Shown here: positions 2,533 through 64,000 of the stretch, in pieces
Layout: every line of letters begins with the position of its first letter
How positions within the stretch are numbered: position 1 is the stretch's first letter
DNA from: an uncultured Bacteroides sp.
GTDB lineage: Bacteria > Bacteroidota > Bacteroidia > Bacteroidales > Bacteroidaceae
Direction of reading: 5' to 3'
Assembly (NCBI GenBank): GCA_965140635.1
Contig: OZ223290.1
Location: 431-64,430, forward strand
Length of the DNA stretch: 64,000 bases
Translations under genes and position numbers: made by a program
The notes under the pieces: generated by a model
Database searches by the model: none
Seen by the model: only the letters and a program-made list of their open reading frames with translations
What the model was told of the DNA's origin: nothing

Positions 2533-3882
2533 TTAGCGCACTGCTTTAAACGTCCTAAACTGCTTCCATAACATAAAGCCTGAAACAAGACTTGCAGCAA
2601 AGTCGGCTATGGGCATACTAACCCAAACGCCAAAAGTGCCCCAAAAAGAAGGAAGAATAAGCAGACAAGGTATCAGAAAAAGAACTTGGCGGGTGAGAGA
2701 AAGAAAAATAGCCTTACCCGCCATTCCTATACTCTGAAAGAAATTTGACGCCACCATTTGAAAACCGACAATAGGAGCAAATATTACGATTATACGAAAT
2801 CCTTCAGAAGATAAACGAATAAGTTCTTTATCAGGAGTAAAAATAGAAGTAAGTAATTCCGGAATAAACATCCCTGCTAAAAAGCCAGTGGTCATAACAA
2901 TTGTTGCTCCATAAATCGTCAATTTTAAAACACGAGTTACTCGTGCATATAATTGAGCACCAAAATTATAGCCGGCAATAGGCTGCATCCCCTGATTTAG
3001 TCCCATAACAATCATGGCAAAAAGGAAAATTAGTCGGTTTACTATTCCAAAGGCACCAATAGCTAAATCACCACCATATTTTTTTAAGCCCTGATTCATC
3101 AATATCACAACAAAACAAGATGCTAAGTTCATTAAAAATGGGGACATCCCAATTGCCAATGAATTATAAACGATCTTTTTCTTTAAATAAAAAATTCCTC
3201 GATGAAAGTGTAGCAATTCATTTTTATTAGCAAAGAGCTTAAACTGCCATATCAAAGCAATAGTCTGTGCCAAAATTGTTGCAATGGCAGCACCTTGAAT
3301 ACCCCAGCCAAATCCAAAAATAAACAAAAGATCAAGTATGGTATTAATAAGGACTGTAGCAATTGTAGCATACATTGATTTCTGGGGGTGTCCTGCGGAA
3401 CGCAGTATTGCATTCAAACCTAAATAAAGATGCGTAATGACATTGCCTAATAAAATAACCTGCATGTAATCTCGAGCATAAACAATAGTCTTATCACTTG
3501 CTCCAAAAAAATAAAGAATAGGATCTAAAAAGAATAGAACAATAAAAGTAAATGAAAGACCTATTATAATATTAAGTACAACAACGTTGCCTAGAACCCT
3601 TTGGGCTGTGTCATAATCTTTTTGCCCCAACCTTACAGAAACAAGAGTTGCAGCACCTACCCCAACCAAAGAGCCAAAAGCAGCTGCCAAATTCATCAAA
3701 GGAAACGTAAGAGCTAAACCTGAAATGGCCATTGATCCGACCCCTTGCCCAATAAAGATGCTATCAACCATATTATACAAAGAGGATGCAGTCATAGCAA
3801 TAATAGCAGGAATAGCGTATTGCATCAAAAGTTTTCCGATTTTTTGAGTACCTAGTTCAGTTGGCGTTTTTTGAAGTGTCAT
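2533..3882 (-). CDS. MATE family efflux transporter
   Basis: LYNMVDSIFIGQG, NIILD-like LNTILDLLFI, GAAIATILAQ, QPIAGYNFGA; about 12 hydrophobic segments. Confidence 0.93.
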   Translation of the reverse strand: MTLQKTPTELGTQKIGKLLMQYAIPAIIAMTASSLYNMVDSIFIGQGVGSMAISGLALTFPLMNLAAAFGSLVGVGAATLVSVRLGQKDYDTAQRVLGNVVVLNIIIGLSFTFIVLFFLDPILYFFGASDKTIVYARDYMQVILLGNVITHLYLGLNAILRSAGHPQKSMYATIATVLINTILDLLFIFGFGWGIQGAAIATILAQTIALIWQFKLFANKNELLHFHRGIFYLKKKIVYNSLAIGMSPFLMNLASCFVVILMNQGLKKYGGDLAIGAFGIVNRLIFLFAMIVMGLNQGMQPIAGYNFGAQLYARVTRVLKLTIYGATIVMTTGFLAGMFIPELLTSIFTPDKELIRLSSEGFRIIVIFAPIVGFQMVASNFFQSIGMAGKAIFLSLTRQVLFLIPCLLILPSFWGTFGVWVSMPIADFAASLVSGFMLWKQFRTFKAVR

Positions 3883-4054
3883 ATATCACTTTTTTTTATA
3901 TTGCAAATGTACGCATTTATCCCTCGCTTATAAACCATAAGCTTTAAAAGAAAACATTCTTTCACAGTATCAAAGATGGTTATTCTAAATGACGGAAGCT
4001 TCCTTCTTTCATTAATTAGCTTAGAAATAGTAGCATAATATAAGAAATGTTTCG

Positions 4055-4062
4055 TATTTTTG
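4055..4062 (+). promoter_or_regulatory. Bacteroidetes sigma70 -7 element (TAnnTTTG) upstream of lysS
   Basis: TATTTTTG about 30 nt before the lysS ATG. Confidence 0.55.
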
Positions 4063-4090
4063 CCTCCGAAATTGAGTTAATACGTAACAA

Positions 4091-5827
4091 ATGAATATAT
4101 TAGAATTAAGTGAACAGGAGATTATTCGACGCAATAGTTTGAAGGAACTCCGGACAATGGGTATTGAACCATACCCTGCAGCTGAGTATGTAACAAATGC
4201 TTTTTCAACTGATATAAAAAATGAATTTAAAGAAGTTGAAGATGGAACTCCACGCCAAGTTTCAGTGGCAGGACGTATGATGAGCCGCCGTGTAATGGGC
4301 AAAGCTTCTTTTATTGAATTACAAGACTCCAAGGGACGTATTCAAGTATATATAACTAGAGATGATATCTGCCCGGGAGAAAAGAAGGATTTGTATACAA
4401 CTGTATTCAAACGTTTACTCGATTTAGGAGACTTTATCGGCATAGAAGGCTTTGTTTTCAAAACACAAATGGGAGAAATAAGTATTCATGCCCAGAAGCT
4501 TACAATACTAGGTAAATCGATTAAGCCTTTACCCATAGTAAAATATAAAGACGGTACTGTTTTCGATTCATTTGAAGATCCCGAAATGCGCTATCGCCAA
4601 CGCTATGTTGATTTAGTTGTTAACGATGGAATAAAAGATATTTTCATCAAACGAAATAAAGTATATACTTCCATGAGGGAGTTCTTTAATGCTCGTGAAT
4701 ATATGGAGGTGGAAACTCCCATATTGCAGGCAATACCAGGAGGAGCTGCCGCTAGACCTTTTATTACTCACCACAACGCTTTAGATATTCCTTTATACCT
4801 ACGTATTGCCAATGAATTGTATCTAAAAAGACTTATTGTTGGAGGTTTTGAAGGTGTATATGAATTTTCTAAGAATTTCCGAAATGAAGGAATGGATCGT
4901 ACGCATAATCCTGAGTTTACTTGTATGGAAATATACGTATCCTACAAGGATTATAACTGGATGATGAATTTCACAGAAGAAATGCTTGAAAAAATATGCA
5001 CTGATGTAAACGGCACTACCGAAGTAAAAGTAGGCGATAATATTATCAATTTCAAAGCTCCTTTCAAACGAGTTACTATGCTTGACTCCATCAAAGAATT
5101 CACAGGTTACGATTTATCGGAAAAAAATGAAGATGAGATTCGTGAAGTGTGCAAAGCATTAAAGATGGATATAGATGACACAATGGGTAAAGGAAAACTT
5201 ATTGATGAGATCTTTGGAGAATTCTGTGAAGGTAAATATATACAACCGACATTTATTACTGACTATCCAGTAGAGATGTCTCCACTAACTAAAAAGCATC
5301 GCACTAACCCCAACCTAACAGAACGTTTTGAACTAATGGTAAACGGGAAAGAGTTGTGTAATGCCTATTCAGAGCTAAACGATCCAATTGACCAATTGGA
5401 GCGCTTTCAAGATCAACTTCGTTTAAGCGAAAAAGGAGATGATGAAGCGATGTTCATTGATATGGATTTTGTCCGTGCTTTAGAGTATGGTATGCCACCA
5501 ACTTCAGGTATGGGAATTGGCATGGATCGTCTCGTTATGCTCATAACCGGACAAACGACAATACAAGAAGTGTTATTTTTCCCTCAAATGCGCCCTGAAA
5601 AGACAATCAAAAAAGATAGCATAGACAAATATACTGTCCTTGGCATTTCTGAAGATTGGGTACCTGTTATTCAAAAAGCTGGATATTACTTGGCAGAAGA
5701 TATGAAAGATATTAATCCGCAAAAACTGCATCAAGATATTTGTGGAATAAATAAAAAATATAAATTAGAATTAGCCAATCCATCGGTAAACGATGTGACC
5801 GAGTGGATTAAAAGACTTAATTCGTAA
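4091..5827 (+). CDS. lysS: Lysine--tRNA ligase (class II) with Bacteroidetes C-terminal extension
   Basis: OB fold, RYRQRYVDL, NFRNEG, HNPEFT, YGMPPTSGMGIGMDRL. Confidence 0.98.
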   Translation: MNILELSEQEIIRRNSLKELRTMGIEPYPAAEYVTNAFSTDIKNEFKEVEDGTPRQVSVAGRMMSRRVMGKASFIELQDSKGRIQVYITRDDICPGEKKDLYTTVFKRLLDLGDFIGIEGFVFKTQMGEISIHAQKLTILGKSIKPLPIVKYKDGTVFDSFEDPEMRYRQRYVDLVVNDGIKDIFIKRNKVYTSMREFFNAREYMEVETPILQAIPGGAAARPFITHHNALDIPLYLRIANELYLKRLIVGGFEGVYEFSKNFRNEGMDRTHNPEFTCMEIYVSYKDYNWMMNFTEEMLEKICTDVNGTTEVKVGDNIINFKAPFKRVTMLDSIKEFTGYDLSEKNEDEIREVCKALKMDIDDTMGKGKLIDEIFGEFCEGKYIQPTFITDYPVEMSPLTKKHRTNPNLTERFELMVNGKELCNAYSELNDPIDQLERFQDQLRLSEKGDDEAMFIDMDFVRALEYGMPPTSGMGIGMDRLVMLITGQTTIQEVLFFPQMRPEKTIKKDSIDKYTVLGISEDWVPVIQKAGYYLAEDMKDINPQKLHQDICGINKKYKLELANPSVNDVTEWIKRLNS

Positions 5828-9497: not shown

Positions 9498-10535
9498 ATG
9501 AGTTACTTGATAAAACCCCAAAATTACAAACCTCTGTTGGACTTAAAACAAACAGAATTAGGCATTAAGCAGATCAAGGAATTCTTCCAAATGAATTTAT
9601 CATCAGAACTACGTCTAAGACGAGTCACAGCTCCTCTTTTTGTTTTAAAAGGAATGGGGATCAATGATGATTTAAATGGTACAGAACGCCCTGTTTCGTT
9701 TCCAATCAAAGATTTGAATGATGCACAAGCTGAAGTAGTCCACTCATTAGCCAAATGGAAAAGACTAACATTAGCTGACTATCATATAGAACCTGGTTAT
9801 GGTATCTACACAGATATGAATGCAATTCGTTCTGATGAAGAACTAGGTAATCTTCATTCACTCTACGTAGATCAATGGGACTGGGAAAGAGTAATCACAG
9901 CGGATGACCGAAATGTAGATTTCTTAAAAGAAATTGTTAATAGAATTTATGCTGCAATGATTCGCACAGAGTATATGGTATATGAAATGTACCCACAAAT
10001 AAAACCATGTCTCCCCAAACAACTACATTTCATTCATGCAGAAGAATTAAGAATACTGTATCCTAACCTGACTCCCAAAGAAAGAGAAAATGAAATTACT
10101 AAAAAATATGCAGCTGTATTTGTTATAGGTATAGGAGGAAAATTAGGAGATAACAAAAAACATGACGGGCGGGCTCCAGATTATGACGACTACACATCCA
10201 AAGGGCTCAACGATTTACCAGGATTAAACGGAGATCTTTTATTATGGAATGAAGTTTTACAACGTTCCATAGAACTCTCTTCTATGGGTATACGTGTAGA
10301 TAAAGCAGCTTTGCAAAAACAATTAAAAGAAGAAGGAGAAGAAAAAAGACTAGAACTCTATTTCCACAAAAGACTTATGAATGACACCCTTCCACTCTCT
10401 ATAGGAGGTGGAATCGGTCAATCACGACTTTGCATGTACTATTTACGTAAAGCTCATATAGGAGAGATACAAGCTAGCATTTGGCCTGAGACGATGAGAG
10501 AAGAATGCAAACAACTTAATATGCCTCTAATTTAA
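9498..10535 (+). CDS. asnA: Aspartate--ammonia ligase
   Basis: NDDLNGTERPV, VHSLAKWKR, YVDQWDWERV, HDGRAPDYDD, SIGGGIGQSRL. Confidence 0.97.
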   Translation: MSYLIKPQNYKPLLDLKQTELGIKQIKEFFQMNLSSELRLRRVTAPLFVLKGMGINDDLNGTERPVSFPIKDLNDAQAEVVHSLAKWKRLTLADYHIEPGYGIYTDMNAIRSDEELGNLHSLYVDQWDWERVITADDRNVDFLKEIVNRIYAAMIRTEYMVYEMYPQIKPCLPKQLHFIHAEELRILYPNLTPKERENEITKKYAAVFVIGIGGKLGDNKKHDGRAPDYDDYTSKGLNDLPGLNGDLLLWNEVLQRSIELSSMGIRVDKAALQKQLKEEGEEKRLELYFHKRLMNDTLPLSIGGGIGQSRLCMYYLRKAHIGEIQASIWPETMREECKQLNMPLI

Positions 10536-10536
10536 A

Positions 10537-11199
10537 ATGAATGTTCAAATAGAAGAAAGCTGGAAAGCAAAACTAAAACTTGAATTCGAAAAAGAATATT
10601 TTATCAAGTTAACAGAATTTGTAAGAAATGAATATTCTCAAATTCCTGTTTATCCCCCAGGAAAATTAATTTTTAATGCATTCAACTTATGTCCATTTTC
10701 TAAGACAAAAGTGGTCATTATTGGACAAGACCCATATCATGGGCCAGGGCAAGCGCATGGATTATGTTTCTCTGTCAATGACGAAGTTCGCTTTCCTCCA
10801 TCATTAATAAACATATTTAAGGAAATCAAAAGCGATTTAGGGAATGAAGCTCCTCTCTCAGGAAACTTAACCCGATGGGCAGAACAAGGAGTCTTGTTAC
10901 TCAATGCCACCCTCACCGTTCGAGCACATCAAGCAGGATCACATCAAAACAAAGGTTGGGAGCTTTTTACTGACGCTGCCATAAGGATTTTAGCTGAGGA
11001 AAAAGAAAATATAGTATTCATTCTTTGGGGAGCTTACGCACAAAAAAAAGGAGCATTCATTAACCGCAGTAAACATCTTGTGCTAACTTCTGCTCACCCT
11101 TCCCCCCTCTCTGCACACAATGGTTTTTGGGGCAATAAACATTTCAGTAAAACAAATGAATATCTTAAAAATCATGGAAAAACAGAAATAATCTGGTAA
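10537..11199 (+). CDS. ung: Uracil-DNA glycosylase family 1
   Basis: GQDPYH, PPSL, GVLLLN, HPSPLSA. Confidence 0.98.
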   Translation: MNVQIEESWKAKLKLEFEKEYFIKLTEFVRNEYSQIPVYPPGKLIFNAFNLCPFSKTKVVIIGQDPYHGPGQAHGLCFSVNDEVRFPPSLINIFKEIKSDLGNEAPLSGNLTRWAEQGVLLLNATLTVRAHQAGSHQNKGWELFTDAAIRILAEEKENIVFILWGAYAQKKGAFINRSKHLVLTSAHPSPLSAHNGFWGNKHFSKTNEYLKNHGKTEIIW

Positions 11200-11287
11200 A
11201 AAGAACTTGCTAGTAATTTCGATTTCACTTCCTCTCTCTATCTTTACATAGAAGCATAGATAGAGGATATACACTTATCTACCTAAA

Positions 11288-31114: not shown

Positions 31115-31194
31115 AAACCGATTATATATATTTGTTATATATAACAACAAAGAGTGAAATTTCACTCTTTGTTGCCTATTATTTCTATTTGCTG

Positions 31195-56951: not shown

Positions 56952-57343
56952 TTTACAACGATTATTATTTGATTATTTATAAAATATACTTAACTTGCAT
57001 TTAATAAAAAATTCCGTATTTTTTCATGCATGGCAACAGTATAAAAACATCAAAACTTTCGCATAACCAACTAAAATTGTTGGATAAAAGTTCCGTATAT
57101 AAACAACTTTCGTTATCCGTTTAGATTCATCAAATTCAAGACCAATCCATATATTATCAACTTTGTTATATATCCGAAAGTAAGTAAGTGGATTTCCATC
57201 GAATGCATTTGCATGACAGAATTCAGGAAGCACCGAAGCAGTCCCTATTATTTTTATGAAAAGCTTTTTAATGTAAAACAAACTCGTAAAATAACAGACA
57301 AAAACATGCCATTAAAGATAGTAGCATGTTTAATAAGTGCGGT

Positions 57344-58387
57344 CTAAATGCCTATGCCGATAGATGCAATTGTATAATCTAAATTATCTGACAAAGTTAT
57401 GGCATACATTCTTGAGTCATCATTTGAGACACAAAAACTGTTTATTCTCGCATTTACTTTATACACGTGAATAAGATTTCCAGAAGTCCCAAATTTCATA
57501 ATATATCGTTCTTTCCGCTGATTTACTTGCCCCATATCAGTCCCGCAGTACAACACATAAAAATAGTTGAGCGACGAACAAATGTCTATACAGTGAATTA
57601 TGTCATCTTTGTGGATAGAGACATCTGATGGATTTCTTATAATTCGCTCCCTAATTTTATTAGGTTTAGTGACACACGAATTAATTAATCTTAAACGATT
57701 ATCCTGATAGGTGAAAAAGGAGATGTCTCCAGTAAAATATGTTCCATACGCGATGACATTCTTTGAATATGAGATGAATCCCTGATAAATTCGATATTTA
57801 TCCATTACATTCTCTATTGAATTCAGGTAATCAGGATATATGTTTTGTGTGTTAACCTCTAAACCATCTTTATTATAAATACTCAATGATCCAGCATCAT
57901 AAAGGCCACTACCTATATACTTACTACCAGTAGAAATAATTCGGTCTGTAGCTTTGAAGTTATAACTATTTAAACTGTAAGGAGTGGAATCATTCAATAA
58001 AAAATTTATATTATATTCATCGCATCTCCCATTTTGTCTTTGCAAAACGATCAACGACTTATTTTCACGAGATACACTAATATCAATCGGCATTATACAT
58101 TCACCTGGACCTTCTCCCACGCCTAATGTTCTACTTATTAATTTACCATTATAGCCACATATTGCCAATGCTTTTTCATCTTGATTATCCGTTATTATCA
58201 AGAGGCTATCTATCATTTCTATTTGATTAGGGTTACCCAACAAGAAGTCCATGGGAATCTCTTTAACAGACAAAGTATCAAGGGCTAGACGCTTAACTGA
58301 TCCAATAATTTTCTCGTCATTTTTATTCTTATCAATACATGAGCAGAAAGCTATACATATGAGTACATTAATTAAAAATAATTTCAT
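57344..58387 (-). CDS. Lipoprotein, BF3164 / TolB-like 6-bladed beta-propeller family
   Basis: Lipobox AFCSC, propeller-like repeats (GVGEGPGECI, FCVSNDDSRMYA). Confidence 0.7.
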   Translation of the reverse strand: MKLFLINVLICIAFCSCIDKNKNDEKIIGSVKRLALDTLSVKEIPMDFLLGNPNQIEMIDSLLIITDNQDEKALAICGYNGKLISRTLGVGEGPGECIMPIDISVSRENKSLIVLQRQNGRCDEYNINFLLNDSTPYSLNSYNFKATDRIISTGSKYIGSGLYDAGSLSIYNKDGLEVNTQNIYPDYLNSIENVMDKYRIYQGFISYSKNVIAYGTYFTGDISFFTYQDNRLRLINSCVTKPNKIRERIIRNPSDVSIHKDDIIHCIDICSSLNYFYVLYCGTDMGQVNQRKERYIMKFGTSGNLIHVYKVNARINSFCVSNDDSRMYAITLSDNLDYTIASIGIGI

Positions 58388-58518
58388 ATTATAAACAATT
58401 AAAGGCTACTAATAAACATTAGAGCCCAACATTAATACTAAATTTTGTAATACATACTAATTTAAATAATACTTAATAAGAATTGGATTGTCAAACGCCT
58501 AATCATATACTCCATTTA

Positions 58519-59664
58519 TTACTGTTTTTTTTCTATAAGTTTAAATAGTTCAAAAGTCATATAATCCTCAGATTGTCCATAGAGCTTTTGATAATCACGG
58601 CTTATATATAGTCCATCTTTGTTTACAAAAAAGACATATGAATTATATATTGCTTCTGGGAACAATGTTTCCCCTATAATCTGAAAATCTTTATTCAATA
58701 TAATAACAGAAAACTTTTTCCTTCCATAAACCGCCTTTCCCCACCAACGGATATCATCATCTAAAATGATTTTAGGATATGCAAACCGATAGTAAACCTC
58801 CCTATATGGATCATAGACTAAATCACCGTAGCGTGCTAATTCAAGATTGAGTTTAGGTCCTTGCTCTGAATCAACTTGTTTTTCTGTTGATGAAGTGATA
58901 TATTGGCTCTTTACTTTAATATTTCTTATATCAGAATGATCAATTGACGCAATAACAATATCTTCATCTGTATAAAAAGAATAGATAAATTCTTTCCCGT
59001 TAAATATGCGGCTAAATCGAATATCGTTTGCAGCTATCTCTTCTTTTGTCAAAACATTGTATGTCAATGGAAGCCCTTTACAGGTCTTTTGAATTGTATC
59101 TATTACCACACTGATGGGAGTTTTATCTATAGGATTAAAACGTTCTACCGCATTTTGAGTTATATATACTTTTTTATCAATAAAAATAGGTGGAAGATAT
59201 GGATGTGAAGAAGGAGTATAAGACGGAAGAACTTTATATCCTTCATCCGTTGTCTCATAAGGTATTTTTTGAGTAATACGACATGTTGTATCAACCTTTA
59301 TCAATCCTGAATAGGCATAAGAAGATATATATATATTATCAAAATCCTTAATATAAAAGCCTGTAGGTTGATTTATTCCATTAGGTCCTTCTGCATATAG
59401 ATTTAGTTTAAAAAGGAACTCACTGGTTTTTAAATCATAAAAGAGAATCTGATTAGTACGATAATTAAGAAACGAAAGATATTCTTTCCCTTTGTCATCG
59501 CTAAATATGTATAAATAAAAAGCATTATATCTTACATCCGAATCCAAAGTAAAACTTTTTATTTTTTTTGTCGTCTCCAAGTTATAATTGTATGAGCTTG
59601 ATGCCTTCTCTTTTTTACATGAAACAAGGAAACAAATTATTAAAGATAGTAGTAAAATCCTCAT
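58519..59664 (-). CDS. Lipoprotein, DUF4221 family (beta-propeller)
   Basis: Lipobox LVSC, EGPNGI, YGDLVYDPYREVYYRFAYP, FSVIILNKDFQIIGET. Confidence 0.8.
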   Translation of the reverse strand: MRILLLSLIICFLVSCKKEKASSSYNYNLETTKKIKSFTLDSDVRYNAFYLYIFSDDKGKEYLSFLNYRTNQILFYDLKTSEFLFKLNLYAEGPNGINQPTGFYIKDFDNIYISSYAYSGLIKVDTTCRITQKIPYETTDEGYKVLPSYTPSSHPYLPPIFIDKKVYITQNAVERFNPIDKTPISVVIDTIQKTCKGLPLTYNVLTKEEIAANDIRFSRIFNGKEFIYSFYTDEDIVIASIDHSDIRNIKVKSQYITSSTEKQVDSEQGPKLNLELARYGDLVYDPYREVYYRFAYPKIILDDDIRWWGKAVYGRKKFSVIILNKDFQIIGETLFPEAIYNSYVFFVNKDGLYISRDYQKLYGQSEDYMTFELFKLIEKKQ

Positions 59665-59676
59665 ATTCTTTTTATT

Positions 59677-59763
59677 TTAGAGAGAATGTTTGATATAAAC
59701 GCCATATCCTACAAAAAATGCAAATGTTGCCACAAGAGCAACTTTAAGAATATTCTTTTTCAT
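59677..59763 (-). CDS. 28-aa micro-ORF resembling the N-terminus of NVEALA-domain peptides (truncated)
   Basis: Hand translation MKKNILKVALVATFAFFVGYGVYIKHSL*; stop 12 nt before the DUF4221 ATG; below the ORF-track size cutoff. Confidence 0.6.
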   Translation of the reverse strand: MKKNILKVALVATFAFFVGYGVYIKHSL

Positions 59764-59904
59764 AAGATAATCTTTCAAAGAACAATCATCATTCACTCCT
59801 TTCATTATACATTATTTTTCCTCTCAAACATAAAATTTTAAAATCCCACCGACAAATATTCATCGTCACATTTGCGTCACATTTTCCAAACAAAGACTAT
59901 AAGC

Positions 59905-60541
59905 AAAACAGATGGTCGCAAAGAACTTATAGGTATATATGTTTCCCAAAGCGAGGGCGCCAACTTCTGGTTGAGTGTTCTGACCGATCTTAAAGCTCGA
60001 GGGGTGAAAGATGTTTTGATCGCTTGTATTGATAATCTAACGGGGGTCTCGGAGCCCATCAGCACTATTTTCCCACAGGTGATTATACAGAGTTGTATTG
60101 TTCACCAAATCCGAAATTCATTGAAGTATGTTGCCTCAAAAGATCAGAAAGAGTTTATGTCCGATTAAAAAACAATCTATCAAACTCCTACGCTTGATCT
60201 GGCGGAATTAAATTTTGATAAGCTACAAGATAAATGGGGTAAGAAATATCCAGTCGTCATGGATTCATGGAGAAGAAATTGGGATAAGCTTACTGCCTAT
60301 TTTGCTTATGATGAACAGGTTCGAAAACTCATTTACACCACTAATGCTGTAGAGAGCTTCCATTGTCAAGTTTGAAAAGTGACCAAAACAAAGGGCGTTT
60401 TCCCCAATGCTATGCTCTTAATGAAGTTGATTTACCTGACCGTTCTATCTCTAAGAAATGGACACAGCCTCTTCACAATTGGGAATTGACAGCCGGTCAA
60501 TGCGAATTAAGTTTGGTGCAAGAATACCATTGGATATATAA
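59905..60541 (+). pseudogene. IS256-family transposase remnant (5'-truncated, stops, frameshifts)
   Basis: DGRKELIGIYVSQSEGANFWLSVLTDLKARGVKDVLIACID..CIVHQIRNS, stop at 60166, same frame continues KWGKKYP..IYTTNAVES, second stop, frameshifted KKWTQPLHNW..KFGARIPLDI*. Confidence 0.9.
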
Positions 60542-60663
60542 TCCATTTTTCTTCTCGGTTTTTCAAACGTAAAGAAAAGACTGTTCCCGCAATTGTGCAA
60601 GGGTATATAAACGGTTCGTTCCTCACCGCCCTCGCACACTTCCTATAACAGCCTTAAAAAGCA

Positions 60664-60695
60664 TTTGTAAATCCAAAAATAAAAAATTATATTTG
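60664..60695 (+). promoter_or_regulatory. Bacteroidetes -33/-7 promoter heading the cassette array (Pc-like)
   Basis: TTTG (60664-60667), 20-nt spacer, TATATTTG (60688-60695). Confidence 0.7.
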
Positions 60696-60746
60696 TATTG
60701 AATTAGCTAGAATATGAACTAGATAAAGTTCAAATTACACTTCCTT

Positions 60747-60753
60747 GTTAGCC
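60747..60753 (+). other. Integron core-site-like GTTAGCC opening cassette 1
   Basis: Reverse complement of GGCTAAC at 62055-62061, just after the stop of the same gene. Confidence 0.6.
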
Positions 60754-60787
60754 ACAATTTGGCAAAAATCCTGAAAACAGTATCAAA

Positions 60788-62047
60788 ATGAAGACAATTA
60801 TCTCTATCTTTTTGACATTTTTAAGTATGCCAGAGTGCTACTCCCAATATATTGACCTAACTACAATTCCTAAATATGATTGTGAGCATAAAAAAGAAAA
60901 TCTATTTGTATCAAAAGGATTCACTTTTGTTATTCCAGACGTAACAGATTCAATTCTTAATGAAAGGATGGAAGTGTATTCTAGTTGGTATAATGATACT
61001 ATAAAAATAAAAAAGGAATCTGAATTACTTCGTGCTGATTATTATAAAAACCTTTGGATTGTCGGCAAAATTTCGGATTTTAAAGACTGGAAACGTTTTA
61101 AACTACCAATTCAGAAAATTGATAATGGTTTTATATTCAGAGGAGCAGAATACACCAATAATTTAGATGGTATTTCATATATTGACACAAATAGGATTGC
61201 TTATGTTGGAAACGACAATATGTGCTTATTCGGAATTAGAGAACCGTCTTACTCAAACGGAATGGATTTTACCATAACTCAGAATTTGCGAAAAACAATA
61301 TTTGGTAACTATTTGAATGACAGCGATTCTATTAACGTTTCAGACCTTAGACTACTTCGGGAAAATAATTACAGGTTTTATCCTACCAAATTTATGAATT
61401 TTTATGTATCTAAAAAAATAGATAGTTTTAATATTGATCAAATTGAGCATGCTCAGAAGTCTTTCTGTCAGGATTTTTGTAAATTTTTCAACCTAGCGTA
61501 TCCAAAGGAGAAAATAAAAGCTTTTTTCCATTCTGACCAATTAGAAATTCTTATGGTTTCAGGATATTGGGACAGATGTGGCGGTTCAATTGGAGGTCTC
61601 TCACCAAAAGGAGAAATTCATACAAAGGGAACATCAACCGAGTTAATAAGTCACGAATTCGGGCATAAAATTTTTGAATCGAATTTTGGAAGCAGTGACG
61701 ATAAAGTCGGGTATCTTAGCGAAGGTGTAATTAGATATTACTTTAATAGCAAAAACGCTAATCAATACTATAAGGACTTAGAAATTGCCTATAAAAAAAT
61801 TGATGAAATAGATTATATAAGTAGATTTGATGATTATGGGAGATTCGATTTTGGTGATGATTATCCAATTTCAGGAGTATTTACTAAATACATAGTTGAC
61901 AGTTATGGTATAGACAAACTGAATTTATACTACTCAAAGTTTGAGTTTGTTAAAAGTACAAACTTGATTTTTGAGAAATCATTTGAGGAGTTTATTAATG
62001 ATTATAAAGAATGGCTGAAAAAGGAATATGAACGAAAAGAAGAATAA
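60788..62047 (+). CDS. Secreted gluzincin zinc metallopeptidase (M1/MA-like)
   Basis: Signal peptide; HEFGH-x18-E (LSEG) and a downstream Y..SG..F..Y....YG helix. Confidence 0.7.
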   Translation: MKTIISIFLTFLSMPECYSQYIDLTTIPKYDCEHKKENLFVSKGFTFVIPDVTDSILNERMEVYSSWYNDTIKIKKESELLRADYYKNLWIVGKISDFKDWKRFKLPIQKIDNGFIFRGAEYTNNLDGISYIDTNRIAYVGNDNMCLFGIREPSYSNGMDFTITQNLRKTIFGNYLNDSDSINVSDLRLLRENNYRFYPTKFMNFYVSKKIDSFNIDQIEHAQKSFCQDFCKFFNLAYPKEKIKAFFHSDQLEILMVSGYWDRCGGSIGGLSPKGEIHTKGTSTELISHEFGHKIFESNFGSSDDKVGYLSEGVIRYYFNSKNANQYYKDLEIAYKKIDEIDYISRFDDYGRFDFGDDYPISGVFTKYIVDSYGIDKLNLYYSKFEFVKSTNLIFEKSFEEFINDYKEWLKKEYERKEE

Positions 62048-62054
62048 AAACTGC

Positions 62055-62471
62055 GGCTAACAATGGTAAGCGTTGCACAAGCCAATAAATTATAAAAAAC
62101 AGACTTTTACAACTGACTTTTGAGGCAATTTCTCTTTTTAGGTCACTTTATAATGAGCTGTTTTAAGATTCCTGTGGACTGCTAACCCTTGTGCTCCGCC
62201 CGTATTCTTCCCTGTAAGCGGCTATATTGATGCACTTTTCATAGCTATTGCCTATGCATTGGGCCTTTATCGGGCAACCCTTGCAATCGCTGCGATTGGT
62301 AAAATAATTATCCTTTAAAGTGCCCTTTTCCAGCTTTTGCTTTCTAAAGGTTACTTTTTTACTTTGGGGGCATTACAAAAGTTCTGGCTTAGTTTCATTA
62401 AGCACTTTGGCTGTTAGAGAGAAAAGCTTTTTGAAGCGCTAAACGGCACTATGTATTAAGAAGCGTTGCCA
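62055..62471 (+). other. attC-like recombination site interrupted by an IS remnant
   Basis: Begins GGCTAAC 7 nt after the stop codon, ends GTTGCCA; IS remnant in between. Confidence 0.5.
62065..62372 (-). mobile_element. IS1182-family remnant (transposase fragment plus one end)
   Basis: Minus-strand 62372-62163 translates CPQSKKVTFRK...DCKGCPIKAQCIGNSYEKCINIAAYREEY; candidate terminal repeat GGTAAGCGTTGCACAA at 62065-62080. Confidence 0.65.
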
Positions 62472-62639
62472 ACCATTTGAAAAATATCACATATGAGATT
62501 TAATAGCAAAAGACAGTTACTTTTAAGAAAGCTTTCAGAAAATCTTTTAACTGAAATGGAATTGAATCAACAAACTCTTCCCAACCATAAAACAGATTTT
62601 CTTTGCCCCAACGACGGAAGGATAAAAACGGTTGGCAAC
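62465..62639 (+). other. Degenerate mini-cassette bounded by a perfect 10-bp inverted core pair
   Basis: GTTGCCAACC (62465-62474) and GGTTGGCAAC (62630-62639); ATG at 62493 but no intact ORF ends before the inverse core. Confidence 0.5.
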
Positions 62640-62835
62640 ACCGTACATCGTTTATTGCTTCTTTTCTCGTCTCTTTTGTCTCAAATTTATTGTAACAAAA
62701 TCATGTATAAACAACATTGGCAACAAGATTGAAGAAACATCCTGCCAATTTGCAGATAAACTAATATGAGTTGCAGAACGGATTTTACAGAACAACTACT
62801 GTTAGCTACTTTTGAGACATGTTTAACTAAAATGA

Positions 62836-63885
62836 TTGATTATGAAAAAATCTCTTAAACTCGGATTACATGTTTTATTTTGGATTGCCATACCATCTTT
62901 AATACTCTATTTTAACTGGGCTGAACAAGATGCGACCCATTTCCCAGGATTTAGTAAACCCGAATTAGAAAGCTTTTTGGAGATAATTAAGAACAACACT
63001 GACCTAACTATTATTTCTCTAATTAGCTCAATACCAATATTTTATTTGTCATTATACGTATTGACCCCAAAACTTCTATTTAAATGGAATTTTTTAAAGT
63101 TAAGTATATTTGTTAGTTCCTTTATTGCTTATTATTATATTGCTTTTTACTCTATCATTCTTCTATTTCCTATGATATGTTTCCTTGGGGCCCCACTTGT
63201 TCTCAAAGTTCTTGCCTCAATTGTTTGTCTCTCAGGATTAGGAGGTACCATGTTTGCATTTATCGAAAAAAGCAAAAAGGATAGATTAGATAAAGAGATA
63301 CTCTCCAAAAAGAATATACAACTAGAACTGGACTTGTTAAAATCAACCATTAGTCCACACTTCTTATTTAACACACTCAATAATATTGATATATTAATTG
63401 GAAAAGAACCCAATAAAGCATCAGAATACCTTAAAAAATTATCAGGAATACTACGGTTTCTATTCTCAAACAACAAAGATGAAATGATTCCTTTAAACAA
63501 AGAGCTTGAATTCATTGATCAGTATATCTCTTTACAAAAATTGAGAACTACAAATTCTGATTTTGTAAGTCTTAAAATATCAGGAGAAATAGAAAATTGG
63601 GAAATTCCTCCAATGTTATTTTTACCTTTTCTTGAAAACGCCTTTAAGTATTCTACTAACAAACTGAAAAATAATGCAATTGAAATAAAAATAGATGCAC
63701 AAGATACAGATTTACATTTTCTTTGTAAAAATAATATTTCTACTAACAAAAGCGAAATAGAAACGCATGGAGTTGGCATTAAGGTTATGAAACAACGCCT
63801 AGATTTGATATACAAAAGCAATTATAAACTTAATATAAGTAATGAAAATAACTCCTTTACAATAAATCTAACTATTTCAAGATGA
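62836..63885 (+). CDS. LytS/YesM-type membrane sensor histidine kinase
   Basis: About four TMs, SPHFLFNTLNNI H-box, IPLNKELEFI, LPFLENAFKY, GVGIK. Confidence 0.95.
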   Translation: MIMKKSLKLGLHVLFWIAIPSLILYFNWAEQDATHFPGFSKPELESFLEIIKNNTDLTIISLISSIPIFYLSLYVLTPKLLFKWNFLKLSIFVSSFIAYYYIAFYSIILLFPMICFLGAPLVLKVLASIVCLSGLGGTMFAFIEKSKKDRLDKEILSKKNIQLELDLLKSTISPHFLFNTLNNIDILIGKEPNKASEYLKKLSGILRFLFSNNKDEMIPLNKELEFIDQYISLQKLRTTNSDFVSLKISGEIENWEIPPMLFLPFLENAFKYSTNKLKNNAIEIKIDAQDTDLHFLCKNNISTNKSEIETHGVGIKVMKQRLDLIYKSNYKLNISNENNSFTINLTISR

Positions 63886-64000
63886 CTATAAATTGCATTA
63901 TTATCGAAGATGAGCCATTGGCAAAAGAAAGACTAGAAGAATACGTAAATAAAGTATCATATCTTGAATTGAAAGAGAGTTTCTCAAGTGGTTTAGATGC
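63882..64000 (+). CDS. Response regulator (probably LytTR), N-terminal part, runs off the window
   Basis: ATGA overlap with the kinase stop; MTINCIIIEDEPLAKERLEEYV receiver start. Confidence 0.9.
   Translation, partial: MTINCIIIEDEPLAKERLEEYVNKVSYLELKESFSSGLD

Follow-up and report, generated by a model that had tools for sequence, protein, structure and literature searches.

A probable fossil cluster of integron-type gene cassettes in a Bacteroides-like chromosome

We analysed a stretch of 64 000 nt (hereafter the window), which corresponds to positions 431-64430 of contig C2 in a four-contig assembly rated 99.96% complete. The host is Bacteroides-like, its aroB gene being 80-83% identical to aroB from named Bacteroides species. 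The last part of the window, from 60747 to 64000, very probably represents the fossil remains of three clustered integron-type gene cassettes. In integrons, the recombination site attC is an imperfect palindrome of 57-141 nt, arranged as R''-L''...L'-R' and folding into a hairpin. An earlier note on this DNA, made from its letters, had proposed either an integrase-less cluster similar to attC site clusters without integron-integrases (CALIN) or a distinct cassette system of Bacteroidota. The first proposal is now supported: the homologues of units 1 and 3 (74-90% and 81% amino acid identity, respectively) are cassettes followed by high-scoring attC sites elsewhere in Bacteroidota. Homology blocks and core pairs delimit modules bounded by core sites, with a G|TT crossover and a complementary R'', as expected of gene cassettes. 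The integrase-less reading also fits the search of this nearly complete genome for IntI, which found none (best TIGR02249 match, 75.7 bits versus a cut-off of 265); a complete integron (IntI, the attachment site attI and the cassette promoter Pc) is thus lacking.

Boundaries and content of the three cassettes

Two blocks of the window, 60747-62068 and 62717-64000, were aligned by BLASTN to cassettes of other genomes, and no homology was detected between or outside them. The first block matches positions 9964-11282 of another locus, L034, with 83.6% nucleotide identity. It begins at the G of GTTAGCC (60747-60753, plus strand), the R'-type core that marks the 5' boundary of cassette 1, and ends 7 nt after GGCTAAC, leaving an attC stub made of R'' and the first 7 nt of L'' (62055-62068, plus strand). 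Indeed, GTTAGCCAC opens the homologous cassettes in L034 and in a second locus, L035, as well as cassette 1, and the pair GTTAGCC...GGCTAAC also flanks the homologues of the cassette 1 protein in L034, L035 and a third locus, L036. The second block matches positions 9877-11159 of locus L017 (81.8% nucleotide identity), and its left edge is the TT just after the crossover G of L017 (G|TTGGGCAC).

All seven motifs named in the earlier note are present where it placed them, including GTTAGCC (60747), GGCTAAC (62055), GTTGCCAACC (62465), GGTTGGCAAC (62630) and GTTAGCT (62801). The pairs GTTAGCC/GGCTAAC and GTTGCCAACC/GGTTGGCAAC are complementary, the latter perfectly across 10 nt. The delimitation of units 1 and 2 stands, whereas that of unit 3 does not: the supposed core GTTAGCT is part of the kinase cassette's conserved leader, where relatives read GATACCG, and the true boundary is at 62716/62717, with the core ATTGGCA.

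Cassette 1 carries an open reading frame (ORF) for a 419-aa protein (60788-62047, plus strand), with an N-terminal signal peptide apparent by eye and a HEFGH motif. No match was found in Pfam, NCBIfam or PDB; the motif suggests that the product may be a secreted metallopeptidase. Homologues share 90% (locus L047), 82% (L034) and 74% (L035 and L036) amino acid identity with it. In L034, an attC of 82.5 bits starts 5 nt past the stop codon of the homologue, and the co-oriented array also holds genes for VIT1, an S41 peptidase, an esterase, RibD_C, a cupin, HigB/HTH and a methyltransferase. In L035 and L036, the GTTAGCC...GGCTAAC pair surrounds a different attC, and the closest homologue, in L047, has decayed cores (GTCACAT and GGCTAAT) and no attC. 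More distant homologues (27-29% identity) gave no information, their contexts being unrelated.

The attC of cassette 1 is severed after 14 nt, the alignments with L034 and L047 both diverging at 62068. Beyond this point lie approximately 370 nt of filler (62069-62464), including the remnant of an IS1182-family transposase with internal stops (62181-62378, minus strand; NF033551, E = 1.1e-5; PF13751, E = 3.6e-6). What had been described as a 417-nt spacer is hence a truncated attC plus filler with insertion sequence (IS) debris.

The middle unit, cassette 2, extends from 62466 to 62716. Its first bases are the TT of the R'-type core GTTGCCAACC (62465-62474, plus strand), which matches the reverse complement of 62630-62639 at 10 of 10 positions, and the unit closes with a degenerate 95-nt attC (62631-62725, plus strand) whose R'' is (G)GTTGGCAAC. 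The R' in situ reads ATTGGCA (62716-62722), an A replacing the crossover G. The 62631-62725 site was recovered by R2, the broader of the two covariance models described below, as a tied-best, full-length match in the window (15.2 bits, E = 0.2); the narrower model, R1, gives it 6.9 bits. Since its ends coincide with the start of cassette 3, which was found independently, and with the R'' that the earlier note had placed at 62630, we accept it as a putative shortened and decayed attC, 95 nt long versus approximately 135 nt; the previously assumed spacer of 175 nt is in fact this site. The 79-aa ORF of cassette 2 (62493-62732, plus strand) runs through the attC. The stop codon that had been reported next to R'' is not there, as this frame reads through GGTTGGCAAC and stops at 62732. 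Its coding status is doubtful, and cassette 2 is tiny and perhaps non-coding.

Cassette 3 (62717-64000, plus strand, continuing to the end of the contig) comprises a leader, a LytS-type histidine kinase (62836-63885, plus strand; PF06580, E = 3e-24) and a response regulator with a LytTR domain (from 63885, plus strand; PF00072 and PF04397). Kinase homologues are 81% identical, one of them lying in the 3.4-Mb chromosome of an uncultured Sunxiuqinia metagenome-assembled genome (MAG; OZ223309.1, genome G425, loci L017/L027). In the homologous kinase-regulator cassettes, GTGCCCAAC stands 6-10 nt past the regulator stop; the AGCTAAC that had been expected after the regulator was derived from the wrong core, at 62801. 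Contig C2 terminates 444 nt beyond the window, within the response-regulator gene.

In another organism (L018/L019, with an 81% kinase homologue), the kinase-regulator cassette adjoins gltX. A strong attC (80.6 bits, R' = CTTAACG) follows the regulator and none precedes the cassette, an arrangement resembling a halfway point in the decay that the window shows.

The ends of contig C2 deserve a separate mention. Its start falls inside the biotin carboxylase gene (accC), 430 nt before the window, the heptamer ATCATAT is common to both ends, and the assembly, for all its 99.96% completeness, lacks the regulator's 3' end.

Cassette arrays and recombinases in other Bacteroidota

The neighbourhood of the kinase in Sunxiuqinia is a cassette array, in which co-oriented, unrelated genes are each followed by an imperfect palindrome of approximately 137 nt (xxxxAAC...GTTxxxx). 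Every cassette of L017 shows 8-10 nt of complementarity between its first bases and its own R'', as in the start/R'' pairs GTTGGGCAC/GTGCCCAAC (kinase-regulator cassette), GTTACCTGC/GCAGGTAAC and GTTATGGTAC/GTACCATAAC. When 12 Sunxiuqinia attC sites were aligned, 85.8% of cells were paired and 14 pairs showed compensatory changes, which none of 500 shuffles equalled; this covariation supports the R and L stems as real. The attC hairpin is therefore well documented in the homologous arrays, whereas the window offers only the low-scoring, weakly folding site of cassette 2 and the truncated one of cassette 1.

Two home-made covariance models were used, R1 built from the Sunxiuqinia sites and R2 from 28 sites of three arrays. 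R1 detected 140 sites (E <= 1e-3) in the Sunxiuqinia MAG, in at least 8 arrays on its contigs C1, C2 and C3, and nothing significant in the window or in the genome it comes from. R2, like R1, found no site at E <= 1 when that whole genome was searched; in the window, the two models together yield one marginal site and one stub. With a threshold of E <= 1e-6 and no more than 8 scored candidates per genome, R2-type attC sites were found in 260 of 401 sampled genomes of the host order, Bacteroidales (65%), and in 173 of 236 genera, as against 8 of the 401 genomes (2%) with a canonical IntI (TIGR02249 above cut-off). The alternative offered by the earlier note, a distinct cassette system of Bacteroidota, gains support from these figures. 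In the genus of the window, on the other hand, the R2 family occurs in only 2 of 80 genomes.

A side observation concerns the sites themselves. In L017/L027 (2679-19410), a 325-aa IS110-family element occurs in four identical copies, on the minus strand in every case; each copy occupies a different attC at the same position, between R'' (...AACAA) and L'' (TTGTA...). An IS1111-attC group within the IS110 family was reportedly described by Tetu and Holmes in 2008. The Sunxiuqinia copies resemble it in their shared position between R'' and L'' and their single orientation; they were, however, seen in a relative, and the debris that disrupts attC in the window belongs to the IS1182 family.

The Sunxiuqinia MAG holds its 140 attC sites and yet no IntI. 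Roughly 600 nt separate the start of its 47-kb array (C3:731473-778356) from a preceding co-oriented tyrosine recombinase of 383 aa, which is best described as XerA-like (NF040815, 226 bits, cut-off 220; TIGR02249, 204 bits, cut-off 265) and is devoid of the ALERKYP-type patch carried by a true IntI of the order. Comparable arrangements exist in other genomes: an intact homologue of this recombinase lies, co-oriented, on the head side of an array in one complete genome (G390), about 6 kb before the first detected site, a degraded one stands co-oriented 1.1 kb before the array in another complete genome (G330), and a truncated copy heads a mini-array in G469. No homologue was detected in seven of the ten array flanks considered (nine genomes), where the array often ran beyond the stretch examined, and G139 has a 36% homologue within the array, in opposite orientation.

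We tentatively suggest, at somewhat less than even confidence, that the cassettes belong to an integron class widespread in the order and serviced by a non-IntI enzyme, the candidate being a co-oriented Xer/XerA-like recombinase with an N-terminal extension and without the IntI domain. Linking R2 attC sites to IntI was also attempted and failed, as the IntI genes of draft genomes sit 0.5-1.3 kb from contig ends; five of the seven IntI-positive genomes have R2 sites, versus 65% of all sampled genomes. In the literature that we searched, neither the R2 attC family nor its recombinase is described, and the system looks like a variant undescribed in the integron literature, apart from the related observation of recombinase-associated acquired interbacterial defence clusters (rAID-1), discussed below.

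Other recombinase genes were noticed in these arrays. Within its cassette array, L034 contains a tyrosine recombinase of 283 aa that shares 42% identity with the head recombinase of Sunxiuqinia; an IS91-type Y2 transposase comes directly after it (3204-5226 for the two), and a further recombinase fragment just before it (2842-2978). In the Sunxiuqinia MAG, the array at C3:2.74-2.77 Mb includes a second Xer-like recombinase (442-aa frame), and a 28-aa C-terminal fragment, 82% identical to the head recombinase, heads the array at C1:447-465 kb.

Origin and fate of the cluster

The GC content of the cassettes is 0.29-0.32, versus 0.36-0.37 for the window and the contigs of the genome, and their nearest relatives belong to another family. 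A DNA search of 60600-64000 in 40 relatives returned nothing similar, and exact-match look-ups of the window proteins found none. The immediate upstream neighbour of the cluster is the pseudogene of an IS256/Mutator-family transposase (59872-60572, plus strand), composed of three stop-broken ORF pieces (PF00872, E = 8.5e-25 for the first piece). Low GC content, IS256 and IS1182 wreckage on and inside the cluster, the lack of any DNA match in the 40 relatives and the near absence of the attC family from the genus all suggest that the cassettes were probably acquired horizontally.

A plausible vehicle for bringing cassettes into Bacteroides is the mini-array of G469, a genome of the same genus (L050, C30:336000-352000). 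Flanked on both sides by a copy of a 387-aa DDE transposase, this mini-array includes, besides the truncated Xer-like recombinase, three low-GC genes (one of them hybrid-cluster-protein-like), an attC of 103 bits, a membrane protein of 320 aa and the reverse transcriptase of a group II intron.

A 40-70-nt sequence at 59817-59900 has six partial copies (80-93% identity) on contig C3, at 4.5-48 kb. On the minus strand, it is located upstream of an operon for a small MKK... peptide and a DUF4221-type lipoprotein. Considered as a possible attC, this repeat was rejected on account of its position upstream of the lipoprotein operon and of its copies on C3; it probably marks the leaders of paralogous operons.

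The following scenario may be proposed for the cluster. In the source arrays, such cassettes are promoterless modules ending in an attC of approximately 135 nt. A tyrosine recombinase cuts the core at G|TT; hence TTxxxx opens every cassette, and the complementary xxxxAA(C) opens the attC that belongs to it. Three such modules would have reached the Bacteroides-like chromosome: one for a secreted HExxH protein, a tiny one, and one for a LytS/LytTR two-component pair. Their sites are now ruined, the first attC being cut at 14 nt and replaced by filler with IS1182 debris, the second being reduced to 95 nt with ATT in place of GTT in its downstream core.

As regards expression, the upstream promoter reported by the earlier note is present as a Bacteroides-type motif, TTTG-N20-TATATTTG (-33 TTTG, -7 TATATTTG; 60664-60695, plus strand; pattern search). 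Such motifs number 7 in the window versus 2.26 +/- 1.38 in shuffles. It is presumed to drive cassette 1, and the kinase cassette could be expressed from the -7-like box TACTTTTG in its own conserved leader (62807-62814, plus strand).

Since the genome has no IntI, no Xer-like head recombinase and no other attC, the cassettes would be immobile and most likely now behave as ordinary accessory genes. One could argue instead that the cluster is still a working platform, on which a cellular non-IntI (Xer-like) recombinase acts in trans, and that its cassettes can be excised and reshuffled. Indeed, the attC family is widespread without IntI, Xer-like recombinases head arrays elsewhere, and R' and R'' of cassette 2 are perfect complements over 10 nt. 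However, no homologue of the array-head recombinase was found in the genome, the best matches being housekeeping XerC/XerD-like proteins (26-33% identity, XerD 33%), and no attC was detected beyond the cluster. Cassette 1 has a truncated attC, ATT stands in place of GTT in the core ahead of cassette 3, and the closest homologue, in L047, likewise has decayed cores. A platform still in use is thereby very improbable.

Known systems and alternative explanations

The cluster shares many properties with CALIN, defined in IntegronFinder as at least two clustered attC sites detected by covariance model with no IntI nearby (PMC9024848), and with sedentary chromosomal integrons (Cury et al. 2016; PMC9024848). 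These are co-oriented, unrelated and mostly single-gene modules with G|TT boundaries, the cassette-specific complementarity of R'' (xxxxAAC) and R' (GTTxxxx), the lack of an integrase nearby, IS elements within attC, and an attC that is an imperfect palindrome with R and L boxes, whose stem is supported by covariation in the homologous arrays. It differs in that the attC sites of this genome are degraded below detection, that the source attC family (approximately 135 nt) is very uniform and, within the order, far more common than canonical IntI (65% versus 2%), and that the neighbouring recombinase, where an array head could be seen, is Xer/XerA-like, co-oriented and without the IntI patch (ALERKYP...). 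The homologues of cassettes 1 and 3 lie inside such Xer-headed arrays of the R1/R2 type, whereas the genome of the window has neither an intact R2 attC nor the recombinase.

The second system to be considered is rAID-1, which consists of a XerD-like recombinase and low-GC, co-directional orphan immunity genes separated by integron-like intergenic repeats (Ross et al. 2019; bioRxiv 10.1101/471110). By its published definition, the 5' gene encodes a XerD-like recombinase that shares no less than 44% identity with BF9343_RS08045, and at least two co-directional genes with a GC content of at most 41% follow. The cluster might accordingly be seen as the tail of a rAID-1-type array whose recombinase was lost to the IS256 insertion. 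The Bacteroidales, Bacteroides-like host, the low-GC, co-directional accessory genes, the integron-like repeats and the association with a recombinase of the XerD family rather than IntI are all points of likeness; moreover, rAID-1 was reported in 226 of 423 Bacteroidales genomes (bioRxiv 10.1101/471110), and the IS256 remnant occupies the place where the recombinase would be expected. Yet, although the GC content of 0.29-0.32 fits, the gene upstream is an IS256 pseudogene instead of a recombinase, and no recombinase fragment was found in 57000-64000. Furthermore, the cargo does not consist of type VI secretion system immunity genes, nor does it resemble them. Lastly, R2 attC sites are rare in a genus where rAID-1, compared here by description and distribution, is common, which argues that the two repeats are not the same sequence family. 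Descent from a rAID-1 array is thus very improbable.

Several results weigh against a fossil cassette cluster, and some of them favour the view that the core pairs arose by chance in AT-rich intergenic DNA, among accessory genes amid IS debris. Genome-wide, three genes are preceded by a GTT-led 7-mer, 15-45 nt from the ATG, and followed by its reverse complement no more than 30 nt past the stop, a chance-level count when upstream and downstream regions are randomly re-paired (5.4 +/- 2.5). In the same way, 10-nt inverted repeats with a GTT-led left arm number 1 in the window versus 0.5 expected. Taken alone, these statistics place the core pairs not above chance. The spacers as delimited in the earlier note (62050-62476 and 62625-62812) fold like shuffles (z = -0.69 and +0.93) and form no attC-like hairpin; the limits of these spacers had been misplaced. 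With the limits corrected, the stretch 62628-62727 (100 nt) still folds weakly (z = -1.8 and -0.8), and no attC of the window is significant in its own right, the best (E = 0.2) being tied with a chance hairpin at 31136-31179. Half-site hidden Markov models based on sequence only (nhmmer), which have no power, match nothing at 62436-62471 or 62055-62068; the stretch 62436-62464, suspected by eye to be the 3' half of an attC, has no support from them and is not claimed as such. Cassette 2 has no homologue in sequence comparisons, its 79-aa ORF included, so that its status as a cassette depends wholly on the 10-nt complement and on its position. Finally, the 3' end of cassette 3 is unread, the contig ending inside the regulator and the rest being in no other contig.

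Chance is nonetheless scarcely credible as an explanation, given that homology to two independent, genuine attC arrays starts and stops at the cores, to the base, and that the GTTAGCC/GGCTAAC pair flanks the homologue in three other contexts. Because of these homology edges and of that pair, units 1 and 2 are regarded as real despite the statistics. The chance tests by themselves would have wrongly dismissed the cassettes and are kept here as a caveat.

The fossil cassette cluster explains an odd accessory corner of this chromosome: the HExxH protein and the LytS/LytTR pair would be cassettes from distant Bacteroidota, frozen by IS activity and decay of their sites. Integrons are listed for Bacteroidota (PMC8618304), but were found to be very rare in complete Bacteroidetes genomes with IntegronFinder 2.0, the earlier survey having only In0 elements, to which one complete integron, in Salinibacter, was then added (PMC9024848). 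If the integron class with a non-IntI enzyme tentatively suggested above is real, a group regarded as almost free of integrons would have a sizeable cassette pool of its own, from which cassettes are occasionally shed into gut Bacteroides, as in the present cluster. Such a pool, possibly with a non-IntI integrase, may go unrecognised in Bacteroidota. The cassette system may also connect to the immunity-gene arrays of rAID-1, and it would bear on the exchange of accessory genes among gut and environmental Bacteroidota.

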